Source: a phage
Direction: 5' to 3' (one strand)
Length of the DNA stretch: 64,000 nt
Assembly: GCA_014437165.1 (NCBI GenBank)
Contig: GCA_014437165.1_4090.3
Below the pieces are notes generated by a model, which did not search any database, was not told the origin of the DNA, and saw only the letters and a list, made by a program, of their open reading frames with translations. Within the stretch, counting starts at the first letter, position 1; every line of letters begins with the position of its first letter. Positions 29,341 through 39,112 of the stretch are shown here, piece after piece. The position numbers and the translations under genes were made by a program.

Positions 29341-29430
29341 CCCGTAAAGCCCTGGTTAGCTGGTGGCGGTGCAAATGTATAGCTTAGGTGTATTAATGCG
29401 TTAGAATGCGATTGAGGACGTTTTACGGGG
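29341..29430. repeat. ~90-bp element bounded by inverted repeat CCCGTAAA/TTTACGGG, containing a Chi octamer and a CGTTAGAATGCGATTGAGG box
   Basis: Terminal 8-bp inverted repeats read directly; internal boxes recur at ~35300-35350 and ~39029-39110. Confidence 0.45.
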
Positions 29431-29528
29431 TATAGTACTGAATCAGTACTGAAAGATTGTTCTCCCTGGATTGTTCCAGTACTCCTATATAGAAAGAAAA
29501 CTATTTTAAAAGTATTTGTAGAAAGTAC

Positions 29529-29587
29529 TTGCAAAGTATTGGGAAAGGTGTAGAATGTTTTACATCGAGACGGGGGAGACGCTCCCG
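29529..29587 (+). promoter_or_regulatory. promoter + leader-hairpin cassette
   Basis: TTGCAA 29529-29534, 16 nt, TAGAAT 29551-29556; hairpin CGGGGGAG-ACG-CTCCCG 29571-29587. Confidence 0.6.
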
Positions 29588-29613
29588 ACTCACTTTTAAA
29601 AGAGATTAAAACG

Positions 29614-29976
29614 ATGGCTACTAAAATCAATACTATCATGCTTAACCTGGTTTCTTTCCGTGAAGAGATGAAAGATCTTCCCGCTGAGACTGTACGGATT
29701 CACATTGCAGCTTATCGGGAATTGATTGCAATGTTGCCGCTTAAGCGTGAACAGTACGCCGCTACTGCAATGCTGGATGCAATGATCCATAAGATGATCC
29801 AGACTGATTTAACGATGGCTTATCAGTACATGGGCGAAATGTTTGCAGTGTATAGCAAGCCAGTACCAGGAATGGAAAGTACAGAAGTATTGCACGGCTT
29901 AAACTTAAAACAAGATGCATGGGATAATATGCCTCGTTTCCTGGTATGGGCTGACAGTGGCAAGATTTACGAATAA
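29614..29976 (+). CDS. hypothetical protein (small early-type gene)
   Basis: ATG 29614 after cassette; 120 aa. Confidence 0.65.
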   Translation: MATKINTIMLNLVSFREEMKDLPAETVRIHIAAYRELIAMLPLKREQYAATAMLDAMIHKMIQTDLTMAYQYMGEMFAVYSKPVPGMESTEVLHGLNLKQDAWDNMPRFLVWADSGKIYE

Positions 29977-29990
29977 GTTTAATAAAGTAC

Positions 29991-30049
29991 TTGCAAACTA
30001 AGTTTAAAAGCGTATAATACTTTACATCAGGTGGGGAATAGTTCCCCAC
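29991..30049 (+). promoter_or_regulatory. promoter + leader-hairpin cassette
   Basis: TTGCAA 29991-29996, 16 nt, TATAAT 30013-30018; hairpin GTGGGGAA-TAG-TTCCCCAC 30031-30049. Confidence 0.7.
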
Positions 30050-30070
30050 TATAATTAAGAGGATTTAAAA

Positions 30071-30310
30071 ATGGCTAAATCAAAAATGTTCTTAGGACAC
30101 AAAAACAAAACTCAATGGAATGTAAGCCTTTGGATTAATAACGACGAATCATTATACCGGTTGGCCCAGGACTTTATTGCCGCTAACACTAATCGTAATG
30201 ATGCGGCCCGTCATATGATGCTATTTTTAGAACAGACTGGACAAGATAAAACACCGGACGGCTTTAAGTATAGCACTACTGCGATCCGTGCGGCGATGGT
30301 TGGAATGTAA
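30071..30310 (+). CDS. hypothetical protein; paralog of 32471-32710
   Basis: RBS AAGAGGA; HKNKTQWNVSLWINNDESLYR..TPDGFKYSTTAIRAAMVGM shared with 32471 product. Confidence 0.7.
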   Translation: MAKSKMFLGHKNKTQWNVSLWINNDESLYRLAQDFIAANTNRNDAARHMMLFLEQTGQDKTPDGFKYSTTAIRAAMVGM

Positions 30311-30324
30311 GAGAATAGATTAAA

Positions 30325-30356
30325 AGTACTATTGCACGGTGATAGTACTTTATAAT
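30325..30356 (+). promoter_or_regulatory. inverted-repeat operator-like site adjoining a TATAAT box
   Basis: AGTACTAT-n10-ATAGTACT then TATAAT 30351-30356; nearest TTGCAC gives only a 13-nt spacer, so promoter geometry is atypical. Confidence 0.4.
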
Positions 30357-30392
30357 AGATTTCTTTTATACAACAACGATAGGGGTAACAGC

Positions 30393-30659
30393 ATGAATAT
30401 TATATACTTTGCAACGCGTGAACTTGCTCGGATTGCCGCACGCCAGGACGGGGCGACGTTTAAAGATATGGGCGTACAATCTGAACGTGGTAAACGTTGG
30501 GCCGTAGTAAAGCAAAGTACAGCCCGATCAATTCAGTACTGGCTATCTGCTTTAAAGCGTCCTGATAGTGTATCGCGTCGCGTGGTAGAAATAAAGCACG
30601 ACCGCAAGGGCAACCGCGTTACTGTGTACAGTACTAAAAAGATAGCAGTACTTGAATAA
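30393..30659 (+). CDS. hypothetical protein; paralog of 42872-43267
   Basis: Internal ATG 30393 (MNIIYFATRELARIAARQDG..); ends ..HDRKGNRVTVYS like 42872 product. Confidence 0.6.
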   Translation: MNIIYFATRELARIAARQDGATFKDMGVQSERGKRWAVVKQSTARSIQYWLSALKRPDSVSRRVVEIKHDRKGNRVTVYSTKKIAVLE

Positions 30660-30665
30660 AAGTAC

Positions 30666-30724
30666 TTGCAAAGTAAGTTAAAAGGCGTATAATACTTTCT
30701 ATCAGGTGGGGAAGTATTCCCCAC
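30666..30724 (+). promoter_or_regulatory. promoter + leader-hairpin cassette
   Basis: TTGCAA 30666-30671, 16 nt, TATAAT 30688-30693; hairpin GTGGGGAA-GTA-TTCCCCAC 30706-30724. Confidence 0.7.
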
Positions 30725-30743
30725 CACATAAGAGGATTTAAAA

Positions 30744-30974
30744 ATGACTATCATGTATATGACCGAAGTTAAAACTGTAAAAGATACTACCACTGATAAA
30801 ACTACTTACTTACAGCGGATCTGTGGTGTATGGCAACGTATCAGTAAAGCAAAGTACTATAAATTAACATCATATGCCAATCGTTCGGATTCATTCAGTA
30901 CTGAAATAAAAGGTAATAAAGTACACCAATACGGCACTTATTACTATTATAGCCTGGACGCGATTGCAGTCTAA
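30744..30974 (+). CDS. hypothetical protein
   Basis: RBS AAGAGGA; 76 aa. Confidence 0.65.
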   Translation: MTIMYMTEVKTVKDTTTDKTTYLQRICGVWQRISKAKYYKLTSYANRSDSFSTEIKGNKVHQYGTYYYYSLDAIAV

Positions 30975-31006
30975 GCAGTTTTTGAAAATATTTACAATTG
31001 CCGGTA

Positions 31007-31035
31007 TTGACTTATTTTGTCAGTACTGGCATAAT
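31007..31035 (+). promoter_or_regulatory. sigma70-like promoter reading into a non-coding repeat-rich stretch (possible sRNA)
   Basis: TTGACT 31007-31012, 17 nt, CATAAT 31030-31035; downstream GCCCACGGGGTGCGGGAGTGTATCTA and TGCACCCGGTGGGTTAG motifs, no credible ORF. Confidence 0.45.
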
Positions 31036-37663: not shown

Positions 37664-37772
37664 ATTATATAATCATTGAGAGATAGCTCACTAGCCCACA
37701 GGGTGCAGGAGTGTATCTATTGTATAATGTTTGAGTACTGAAAACTATTTTAAAGTATTTGATAAAAAGTAC

Positions 37773-37832
37773 TTGCAAACTATCTCAATAAGCGTATAAT
37801 GTTTTACATCGAAAGGGGAAACGGTTTCCCCT
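37773..37832 (+). promoter_or_regulatory. promoter + leader-hairpin cassette
   Basis: TTGCAA 37773-37778, 16 nt, TATAAT 37795-37800; hairpin AGGGGAAAC-GG-TTTCCCCT 37814-37832. Confidence 0.7.
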
Positions 37833-37851
37833 AGTAATAAGGAAACGAATC

Positions 37852-38193
37852 ATGACTATCTCAATTGCTCAATCTAACTTTGAAAACGAAATCATCGCCC
37901 AGGCACTGCGTTTAAATGATGGTCGGGCCGAAATCAATTACGGTTTCAATTCAGGCGGTTGTGAAAACTATCAGTACTTTGTAACGGCTGATGGCTGTGT
38001 CCTGGGCATCAATACAGTTATTGTAAACATTCAGAAAATTAATTTCAATGATCCAGACGATAGCCAGTTTTACATTGTAGGCGTAGACGTGAATTATGAG
38101 GATGATTCACTAACTGATGATCACACTGGCGAGAAGTTAGAAAGTGCATACGGTGAAGATGATTATCAGTCCGGTCCAGAAGATTTCGAATAA
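37852..38193 (+). CDS. hypothetical acidic protein
   Basis: RBS AAGGAAA; 113 aa, Asp/Glu-rich C-terminus. Confidence 0.65.
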   Translation: MTISIAQSNFENEIIAQALRLNDGRAEINYGFNSGGCENYQYFVTADGCVLGINTVIVNIQKINFNDPDDSQFYIVGVDVNYEDDSLTDDHTGEKLESAYGEDDYQSGPEDFE

Positions 38194-38208
38194 TATAAAA
38201 AAAATAGT

Positions 38209-38268
38209 TTGACAATAGATTATAGTACTGTATAATAAGTTACATGAAGGGGAGAAATGATTCTCCCC
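38209..38268 (+). promoter_or_regulatory. promoter + leader-hairpin cassette (near-identical to 40594-40654)
   Basis: TTGACA 38209-38214, 16 nt, TATAAT 38231-38236; hairpin GGGGAGAA-ATGA-TTCTCCCC 38249-38268. Confidence 0.7.
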
Positions 38269-38288
38269 ACTAACAGAGAGAAAACAAA

Positions 38289-38501
38289 ATGGCTAATATC
38301 TGCACTGTACTGAAAAATGCAAAACAAGTTTTATTTTCTGATCACGATCATTTAAACAAGGATATTACTGGCGTTCGGAATATCAAAGATGTAAAAAGTG
38401 TTATGGGTATCTATTGCAATATGAAACGTGTTGGAACGTTCGGCGATAAAGTACTATACCAGGCAGGGGATTACAATTTTACACTGACTATTATTAACTA
38501 A
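38289..38501 (+). CDS. hypothetical protein
   Basis: RBS AGAGAGA; 70 aa. Confidence 0.6.
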   Translation: MANICTVLKNAKQVLFSDHDHLNKDITGVRNIKDVKSVMGIYCNMKRVGTFGDKVLYQAGDYNFTLTIIN

Positions 38502-38513
38502 AAAATATTATCA

Positions 38514-38550
38514 CAGTACTATTGACACTGATTGATAGTACTGGCATAAT
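38514..38550 (+). promoter_or_regulatory. promoter embedded in a palindromic operator-like site
   Basis: CAGTACTAT 38514-38522 / ATAGTACTG 38535-38543; TTGACA 38523-38528; CATAAT 38545-38550. Confidence 0.6.
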
Positions 38551-38584
38551 AACTTTTATCAACTACACTACTAAGGAATTAAAA

Positions 38585-38764
38585 ATGGCTATCATCGCAA
38601 AAACTGAAATCATCGGCCTGGATTCTATCATCATGTCGTTTGAAGATCAAAAAGGTATGTATGTAGTTTCCTATGGTGATTATGTTCGGGAGTATGAAAC
38701 GGTAGACGAAGCCTTTGAAAGTTACATTCGCCAGGTGAATAAAGCATACGACGATTACCGCTAA
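38585..38764 (+). CDS. hypothetical protein (59 aa)
   Basis: ATG 38585 (MAIIAKTEII..) after AAGGAA; track start 38522 lies in the promoter. Confidence 0.6.
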   Translation: MAIIAKTEIIGLDSIIMSFEDQKGMYVVSYGDYVREYETVDEAFESYIRQVNKAYDDYR

Positions 38765-38792
38765 AATATATTACCAGTACTATTAAAGATAT

Positions 38793-38819
38793 TGACAACG
38801 TTTGATAGTACTGTATAAT
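38793..38819 (+). promoter_or_regulatory. sigma70-like promoter flanked by AGTACT half-sites
   Basis: TTGACA 38793-38798, ~15 nt, TATAAT 38814-38819. Confidence 0.5.
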
Positions 38820-38863
38820 AAGTTTTATAAACAGTAGTTAACTTAACCTAAGAGAGAAACAAA

Positions 38864-39007
38864 ATGATCGCACTGGATTCATTCATCGACGCAGTACTGG
38901 CAAAAACTGGCGAGGATCTTACAGCAGAACAATACGCAATGATCGAGCAATGCCAGCAAGACGGTAAATCGGTGAAAGATACTGTTAAGATTATCCGCAA
39001 GATGTAA
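38864..39007 (+). CDS. small hypothetical protein (47 aa, below track cutoff)
   Basis: RBS AGAGAGAAA, ATG 38864, stop 39005-39007. Confidence 0.35.
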   Translation: MIALDSFIDAVLAKTGEDLTAEQYAMIEQCQQDGKSVKDTVKIIRKM

Positions 39008-39013
39008 GATTAT

Positions 39014-39045
39014 AGCCCACTGGTTAACGCTGGTGGGCTTTAATT
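39014..39045 (+). terminator. hairpin with weak T-tract (terminator-like), contains a Chi octamer
   Basis: AGCCCAC..GTGGGCT stem with 12-nt loop then TTTAATT. Confidence 0.35.
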
Positions 39046-39112
39046 CATTACCCTATACAATGCCAGTACTAAACCGTTTATCTCGTTAGAATGCGTTACA
39101 GGACGTTTAACA

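Follow-up and report, generated by a model that had tools for sequence, protein, structure and literature searches.

Three copies of a short non-coding element, each built around a conserved box, lie in the 64,000-nt stretch of phage DNA analysed here (contig GCA_014437165.1_4090.3 of NCBI GenBank assembly GCA_014437165.1; hereafter the window). The window derives from an Asteriusvirus, a 121Q/PBECO4/G17-like jumbo Escherichia coli phage with a genome of ~350 kb, and the isolate is a mosaic in which the region of copy 1 is 100% identical to 121Q, that of copy 2 to CRJP21 and that of copy 3 to PBECO4. All three copies are found in an early-gene region that forms the direct terminal repeat of the genome (27924-49020, + strand). 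The borders of this repeat were placed by BLAST of the annotated 21,525-bp repeat of phage vB_Ec-M-J onto the window, which maps the physical left genome end to ~27924 and the end of the repeat to ~49020; a terminal repeat of ~21 kb has been confirmed for fEgEco12 by PhageTerm and restriction digests (PMC13070987). Copies 1, 2 and 3 stand 1.5, 7.4 and 11.2 kb into the ~21-kb repeat, and orthologous positions hold all three in ~35 Asteriusvirus genomes. In this respect, the initial annotation of the sequence was right to describe a discrete, repeated element that contains an inverted repeat and has copies in related phages. Phage 121Q has exactly three box places. A diverged fourth copy of the box (CCTGAGAATG, CGTTACAGGA, CGTTACAGGG) is present at 9338-9363 of vB_Ec-M-J, inside the annotated ORF EcMJ_019, and also in G17, PBECO4 and CMSTMSU; it was not found in the window at up to 7 mismatches.

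The box itself is a 19-mer, CGTTAGAATGCGATTGAGG, which occurs on the + strand at 29399 (no mismatches), 35327 (one mismatch) and 39084 (three mismatches). With up to three mismatches allowed, these three matches compare with 0.01 expected, and none of 100 shuffles produced three. The invariant 30-bp core of the family is made up of three 10-bp units, CGTTAGAATG, CGnTnnAGnn and CGTTTnAnnn, which open with CG(T/A)T and recur once per helical turn. Across 57 distinct sequences the information content is high at CGT.AGAA.G, CG.T..AG.. and CG.TT.A, and the positions between these blocks are hypervariable. For example, the 4 nt after CGTTTTA take nine forms among 12 sequences from T5-like phages (discussed below), and the variable blocks do not covary. 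Positions that are hypervariable in the T5-like boxes also vary among the Asteriusvirus orthologues.

Copy 1 (29313-29432, + strand) was delimited by the box match, by alignments and by a hidden Markov model (HMM) of plasmid cer sites. It comprises GAAAAT at 29315-29320, a 5′ arm analogue, TTAACGC, at 29324-29330, the Chi octamer GCTGGTGG at 29359-29366, an 8-bp inverted repeat (CCCGTAAA at 29341-29348 and TTTACGGG at 29422-29429) and CGTTAGAATGCGATTGAGGACGTTT from 29399; its box (29399-29428, + strand) reads CGTTAGAATG, CGATTGAGGA, CGTTTTACGG. Copy 2 (35256-35356, + strand) is the full-length module and was defined by a plasmid-only cer HMM together with an alignment to eight plasmids. It contains a −10-like TAGAAT at 35262-35267, the palindrome AGAATCGATTCT, a 5′ arm (ATTCTAACG) at 35270-35278, Chi at 35310-35317 and a 3′ arm plus box (CGTTAGAATG, CGATTGAGAG, CGTTTAAAGT) at 35327-35356, with an inverted Chi (CCACCAGC) at 35248-35255. 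Copy 3 (39024-39113, + strand) has a 5′ arm analogue, TTAACG, at 39024-39029, Chi at 39029-39036 within a hairpin (AGCCCAC...GTGGGCT, 39014-39040), and its box (CGTTAGAATG, CGTTACAGGA, CGTTTAACAA) at 39084-39113 on the + strand, where AGGA in the second unit is positioned as a Shine-Dalgarno sequence for the ORF starting at 39113. The copies are ~55% identical to each other and have in common the inverted repeat (T)TAACG(C)...(G)CGTTAG, past which the conserved sequence runs for ~20 bp. They are one conserved family of non-coding DNA modules. The box, Chi and inverted-repeat features noted at the outset all stand at the positions given for them. The CCCGTAAA/TTTACGGG pair, which had been noted as flanking the element, does not hold up as a conserved boundary or stem: relatives change the 8-bp repeat without compensation.

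The copies share a similar setting between transcription units. Copy 1 occupies the 1.7-kb non-coding left end, directly ahead of the promoter of the first annotated early gene. The strong intrinsic terminator of the gene upstream (35202-35231, + strand; a stem at 35202-35223 and then a T run) stands just ahead of copy 2, which is followed by the next promoter. Copy 3 has a terminator-like hairpin on one side and the start codon of the ORF at 39113-39310 on the other, and the G17 annotation of the orthologous place has a terminator plus a downstream gene.

Each copy carries an exact Chi octamer on the + strand (29359, 35310 and 39029; Chi activity is predicted from the sequence), 39, 9 and 47 nt upstream of the box in copies 1, 2 and 3, respectively. 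The Chi of copy 1 is shared with 121Q only and is missing from the other relatives. There are 16 Chi octamers in the whole window against 0.6 expected. Within the terminal repeat there are 10 on the + strand (28512, 29359, 35310, 39029, 40491, 41409, 43952, 45851, 47428 and 47651) against 0.18 expected and two on the − strand (28500 and 35248) against 0.07 expected, and the terminal repeat of vB_Ec-M-J keeps the bias with nine and two. RecBCD recognises the octamer when it is met from the 3′ side and, on this established polarity, the + strand sites are oriented for RecBCD that starts from the right end of the genome. At 28500-28519, 576 bp from the presumed left end, a perfect palindrome of Chi (CCACCAGC-ttgt-GCTGGTGG) presents the octamer in both orientations. 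Elsewhere in the window, − strand Chi octamers at 17280 and 17538 fall inside the GGTGGTGGTGCTGGTGG glycine-rich coding repeats of a paralogous gene array.

The closest relatives of the module outside phages are found in plasmids. A BLAST search of 5,426 E. coli genomes with the 48-nt box placed 24 of 26 hits in small Col-type plasmids. In the three ColE2/ColE7-type plasmids that we inspected, the box stands directly upstream of GGTACGTACAA-N6-TTATGGTAAAT, the cer-type XerC/XerD core, and ColE1 cer has the same tail (...CGCGTTTTAGCGG, TGCGTACAATTAAGGGATTATGGTAAAT). The array of the ColE2/ColE7-type plasmids reads CGTTTTTTG, CGTCAGGAAG, CGACTGAGGG, CGTTTTACGG and then GG and the XerC arm, and is mirrored by the bottom strand of the left arm. 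An HMM trained on no other sequences than three plasmid arms matched copy 2 (35256-35353) over 99 of 127 positions with E=2.4e-5, the vB_Ec-M-J orthologue of copy 2 with E=4.7e-6, and the distal 36 bp of copy 1 (29395-29430) with E=1.4e-4. Copy 2 and the plasmids are identical at 58 of 101 positions with no gap, and an alignment of 13 sequences (eight plasmids, Asteriusvirus orthologues of copy 2 and the rV5-like phage VEcB) has a single inserted column over ~100. Local alignment of copy 1 with a ColE2-type cer site scored 52, against a shuffle mean of 18.5 (standard deviation 2.2). In a scan of species-representative genomes there were nine matches, three of them true (two ColE1-like plasmid contigs, both with the Xer core after the box, and one T5-like contig); the other six, in Firmicutes and other genomes, are chance matches, of which 4.3 were expected. 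The likeness to the cer/mrs sites of ColE1- and ColE2-type plasmids extends over a ~100-bp accessory arm equal in length and register to the phage module, with three CG(T/A)T units ending in CGTTTTA(C/G)(G/C)GG, matching inverted-repeat arms and phased T tracts in both. Judged from these alignments, the phage module in its full length of ~100 bp has its homologue in the stretch of cer sites that separates the Arg box from the XerC arm, and the phage and plasmid sequences very probably share ancestry.

There are also clear differences between the two. The phage copies have neither the XerC-central-XerD core nor the Arg box, their replicon is the terminal repeat of a lytic phage and not a multicopy plasmid, they carry the Chi octamer where the plasmid has loop sequence, and they occur as three to four direct-repeat copies per terminal repeat. 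Taking a core of 28-30 bp as the standard (an 11-bp XerC arm, a centre of 6-8 bp and an 11-bp XerD arm, TTATGKTAAAT), pattern scans for the XerD arm and for the full core returned background AT-rich matches only, none of which adjoins any copy. Directly after the box come GGGGTATAGTACTGAATCAG in copy 1, AAAGTATTTTGC in copy 2 and ATG in copy 3. The Arg box of cer is 18 bp long and lies ~98 bp upstream of the XerC arm (PMC2409434); none was found at copy 2, where the HMM match begins past the Arg box (at HMM position 24) and the upstream sequence, GTAGTATTCCAGTCCACCAGC, lacks TGCATAnnTATGCA. Whether by loss or from the start, the phage copies are without core and Arg box and are therefore not Xer recombination sites. 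What they retain corresponds to the stretch of cer to which published work ascribes PepA binding. PepA and ArgR bind ~180 bp of accessory sequence beside the cer core, and PepA, which recognises specific sequences in the accessory arm, is the main architectural protein of the complex: it synapses two arms without ArgR, but only if the sites are directly repeated on one molecule (PMC2409434). The accessory arm is also portable, in that it functions beside the foreign core loxP (PMC2409434).

Comparison by BLAST with related phages, a check suggested in the initial annotation, yielded further copies in Asteriusvirus and T5-like phages in addition to the Col-type plasmids. In T5-like phages (Demerecviridae) the box matches the non-coding end of the left terminal repeat, and the exact pattern GTTAGAATGCGNNNNAGNNCGTTT was found in IMG/VR in T5-like contigs and 121Q only. 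Local alignment of copy 1 with the T5-like phage HdH2 scored 61, against a shuffle mean of 18.8. The left terminal repeat of T5 contains the untranslated Repeat Regions 1-3 (RR1-RR3; Davison, bioRxiv 10.1101/866236). The T5 box, at ~9,270, lies at the left edge of RR3, ~60 bp left of an inverted repeat of DnaA boxes (9332-9462) and ~350 bp left of the shear point calculated for first-step transfer (9618). A two-unit version is inverted in RR2 and T5 has a third copy in RR1; relative to the full box, the RR1 and RR2 copies of T5 are shorter by exactly the middle 10-bp unit. These copies probably correspond to the published IRB/IRB′ repeats and, for RR3, to its left edge. The invariant positions of the box are identical in T5 (CGTTAGAATG, CGATCTAGGA, CGTTTTAGGC), and in both systems more than one copy per repeat is found in the non-coding DNA of a long terminal repeat that holds the earliest genes. 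In T5-like phages, however, the RR2 and RR3 copies are inverted and form part of a larger inverted repeat with DnaA boxes, whereas all Asteriusvirus copies are direct, lack DnaA boxes and are accompanied by Chi. In the rV5-like phage VEcB, a hairpin containing TAGAAGCGATTCTA is followed after 45 nt by the box, the whole being situated between convergent genes. Some further features of the T5-like loci may be recorded here. A palindrome, CTGTATAwwTATACAG, lies ~45 nt after the box-associated element, and two + strand Chi octamers are found upstream of the box in the terminal repeats. In HdH2 RR3 (2350-2368 and 2708-2860), the 'pal' repeats of T5, AATGAGAATCATTCTCATT and AAATGATAATGATTCTCATT, come close to the consensus of the Fur box (GATAATGATAATCATTATC); putative Fur boxes here would be of note in phages whose receptors, FhuA or BtuB, are iron-regulated.

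The plasmid homologue of the module appears to encode an RNA. An alignment of eight cer sites revealed a conserved Arg box, a pair of hexamers, (N)TGCAT-15 bp-T(A/G)AAAN, and a hairpin whose arms are wholly different in ColE1, CloDF13, pMTY-type and ColE2-type sites and yet complementary in all eight plasmids; the ColE1 segment folds with −40.7 kcal/mol (z = −4.6). The loops of ColE1 and CloDF13 match at 13 of 15 positions, which equals the 86.7% quoted for the conserved 15-mer of Rcd (PMC5935869). Given the published 15-bp spacer of Pcer and the 70-nt length of Rcd (PMC5935869), the co-orientation of rcd with RNAII (PMC2831885) and the strand of RNAI in ColE1, we infer that this cer segment consists of Pcer and the Rcd RNA and ends at CGTTTT, just before the XerC arm. 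Placing Pcer inside the XerC arm (TGAACG-15-TACAAT) was considered and rejected, since TACAAT is not conserved in pMTY-type sites. The TGCAT-15-TAAAAT-type hexamers were preferred because they are conserved in all eight plasmids and their direction fits both RNAI/RNAII and the reported orientation of rcd (PMC2831885). The phage box corresponds to the 3′ arm of the plasmid hairpin and its tail.

The phage copies might themselves specify an Rcd-like small RNA. On this account copy 2 at least would use its own weak promoter (the TAGAAT at 35262-35267) to make a hairpin RNA of ~80 nt which, by analogy with Rcd, would act on tryptophanase, raise indole and arrest host division or growth early in infection. 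We consider this the main alternative reading, though an unlikely one. Copy 2 aligns almost gap-free with the presumed −10 of Pcer and the Rcd segment, and the eight plasmids keep both promoter hexamers and hairpin. Its TAGAAT stands at the presumed plasmid −10 position, although the sequence 15 bp further upstream is TTCCAG, and its arms (ATTCTAACG and CGTTAGAAT) pair in the plasmid register, with 76% of cells paired compared with 29-43% when the arms are slid. Moreover, all Asteriusvirus copies are on the transcribed strand. The covariation analysis proposed in the initial annotation gave a divided answer: one arm pair is compensatory, being G:C in the eight plasmids and A:T in five phage sequences, but the covariation score does not rise above shuffles, 136 of 500 of which reach it. 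The remaining evidence argues against an RNA. The phage folds are no better than those of shuffled sequences (z-scores of +0.66, −1.06 and −0.02 for copies 1, 2 and 3), changes in the 3′ arm are uncompensated in UE-S1, A4 and CMSTMSU, and the −10-like hexamer is deleted in G17. In copies 1 and 3 and in the T5-like copies the arms are weak analogues of 6-7 bp or are missing altogether, the box being the most conserved part, and the phage copies have not preserved the 15-nt loop that ColE1 and CloDF13 conserve. No sigma-70 promoter was called at any box among 61 promoter-like sites in 27900-39400, nothing convincing is seen at copies 1 and 3, and the plasmid hexamer that aligns with the TAGAAT of the box reads CAGGAA or CAGAGA; sigma-32 and sigma-E consensus sequences, compared by eye, were also rejected. 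Rfam gave no match at the copies and has no family for the plasmid segment, and there is no tRNA or tmRNA in the window. The structured-RNA domain that had been suggested is therefore not supported within the phages, but ancestry at the RNA level is plausible and copy 2 might conceivably still have some RNA function.

The shared ancestry might alternatively reflect nothing beyond the capture of plasmid cer DNA by illegitimate or homologous exchange, with the copies persisting as neutral intergenic patches of homology that, together with Chi, favour the shuffling of early-gene cassettes without any sequence-specific factor. The location of the copies at cassette boundaries, between a terminator and the next promoter, is consistent with this, as are the mosaic of 121Q, CRJP21 and PBECO4 segments around them, the enclosure of Chi in each copy and the two inverted T5-like copies that bracket a hypervariable block of pre-early ORFs (see also Davison, bioRxiv 10.1101/866236). 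However, we regard this reading as rather unlikely: neutral DNA would not alternate between invariant and hypervariable positions at a fixed spacing of 10 bp in three lineages of phage and in plasmids of several types, nor would neutral relics show indels of exactly one unit, and few non-coding stretches of diverse T5-like phages are conserved as well as the box. A role as a DNA-entry signal that helps to arrest or stage genome transfer, as proposed for T5, is suggested by the proximity of the RR3 copy to the DnaA-box inverted repeat and the shear point, and by the fact that the Asteriusvirus early genes likewise lie in a long terminal repeat. This seems improbable to us, because the second T5-like copy is 3 kb further left and, like the third copy of T5, too far from the stop point, because the Asteriusvirus copies are spread over 1.5, 7.4 and 11.2 kb of a 21-kb repeat, and because plasmids and the rV5-like phage carry the box with no injection context. 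Finally, an inverted repeat of 9-15 bp around an interior of ~50 nt in copy 2, with related copies in unrelated replicons, recalls a miniature inverted-repeat transposable element, and a miniature mobile element had indeed been suggested in the initial annotation. This idea is effectively refuted: each genome has just three, diverged copies, every relative carries them at the same orthologous sites, no target-site duplication was seen, and conservation reaches ~20 bp beyond the inverted repeat.

We infer from the comparisons above that the element is a core-less, cer-accessory-like module in the terminal repeats of lytic phages, and the best overall explanation, which we favour tentatively, is that this module forms a binding array for a host architectural protein. 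This explanation is ranked first because what has been published on the cer arm is consistent with a portable module. In terms of mechanism, it is possible, if short of probable, that the array acts at the level of DNA as a helically phased site for the binding or wrapping of such a protein, with PepA as the prime candidate because it recognises specific cer accessory sequences and synapses directly repeated arms on one molecule. A protein contacting one face of the helix is suggested by the 10-bp spacing, the unit-sized indels, the invariant recognition-like positions and the variable orientation relative to transcription, the RR2 copy of T5-like phages being inverted and the rV5-like copy lying between convergent genes. 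Conservation phased at 10 bp is what one expects for a protein on one helix face, and not for RNA or neutral DNA. In such a scheme, the host protein would bind the phased array on phage DNA and would organise or pair the terminal-repeat DNA early in infection, while the Chi-rich repeat would supply recombination by RecBCD and RecA. All Asteriusvirus copies are direct repeats and each genome carries copies in both terminal repeats. Taking the analogy with cer further, one may speculate, though we hold this particular extension to be quite doubtful, that the arm of cer that serves as a portable PepA-binding 'topological filter' has been taken over, minus the recombinase core, by lytic phages whose terminal repeats are long. 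A PepA synapse of direct copies in the left and right repeats, and among copies 1-3, would then align the repeats in register, and RecBCD/RecA, guided by the oriented Chi sites, would circularise the genome or join it into concatemers. The box of T5-like phages would, on this view, belong to the long-sought cis-acting complex at the injection-stop region.

Several points weigh against a host-protein array of this kind. PepA has no defined consensus, the carAB control region, which is a known PepA target, lacks the box, and the phage copies are without the Arg box, with which PepA normally works together. At least some copies also stand in transcribed or translated contexts, since copy 3 overlaps a ribosome-binding site and relatives have their fourth copy within an annotated ORF. 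A strongly covarying hairpin is encoded by the plasmid homologue, so that an ancestry at the level of RNA is plausible, and the close relationship of the Asteriusvirus genomes limits the power of arguments from conservation within the group. In a comparison made by eye with known operator consensus sequences, none of ArgR, Fis, IHF, Cra, PurR, CpxR, ArcA, OmpR, PhoP, TorR, the marbox, CsrA and boxA fits all copies; the head-to-tail repeats of OmpR/ArcA type have a similar 10-bp periodicity, but their spacing and sequence differ.

The shared ancestry of the phage and plasmid modules is both solid and unexpected, and our literature search found no paper that links the T5 repeats or Asteriusvirus to cer or Rcd. 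If the proposed role for a host architectural protein is correct, it would tie the 'repeat regions' of T5 (known since 1987), the Asteriusvirus terminal repeat and the rV5-like element to the cer accessory complex, a well-studied host nucleoprotein system, and would name a concrete host candidate for the pairing of ends, circularisation, staged entry or other early steps of phages whose terminal repeats are long. It would also mean that plasmid stability modules and the cis elements of lytic phages have a common ancestry. If, on the other hand, the phage copies are inert, the finding would be a mere curiosity of horizontal exchange.

Beyond the three modules, the terminal repeat is dense with ~25 cassettes, each consisting of a sigma-70 promoter and a 5′ hairpin, that serve small + strand early genes. 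Between 28280 and 48170 these present a near-consensus sigma-70 promoter (AAAAGTACTTGCA...TATAAT), then GTTTTACAT and then a 5′ GC hairpin (GGGGAGAAATGGTTCTCCCC), and nearly all small early genes have one such cassette ahead of them. They recall the PeSL (promoter/stem-loop) cassettes known from T4-like phages, reportedly described by Arbiol, Comeau and Krisch in 2010. The modules resemble PeSL cassettes in being short conserved intergenic sequences that border small early genes in a plastic region, but differ in that the phage box is not a promoter, has three copies as against ~25 cassettes, and is shared with plasmids. A repeated fusion of terminator and promoter, AAAGGGTTGACTTCGGTCAGCCCTTTTTGCTATAAT, in which the TTGAC of the terminator hairpin is the −35 of the following promoter, is found at 417-490, 4912-4985, 6194-6267, 7608-7681, 37633-37660, 41308-41402, 44771-44865 and 47523-47617. 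The palindrome AGTACT occurs 257 times in the whole window against 20.6 expected and is densest in 27924-49020, and CAGTACTG occurs 48 times in the window against 0.87 expected. AGTACT directly precedes a GTATAAT −10 in only 12 of the 257 cases and also builds terminator stems; it could be a binding or modification motif. Some 0.8 kb from the left end, at 28700-28826, there is an iteron-like array of GAYGGCT with six exact copies and variants (GGCGGCT and AACGGCT) spaced at 16, 24 or 40 bp, which is a candidate packaging or replication signal. There are also two families of paralogous genes: a tandem array of ~9 genes on the − strand at 13500-24150, with ~1.2-kb spacing and conserved 5′ ends, and, just past the repeat at 49500-55700, a second family of ~10 small genes with the motif TTAGGAACAAACTATCAA.

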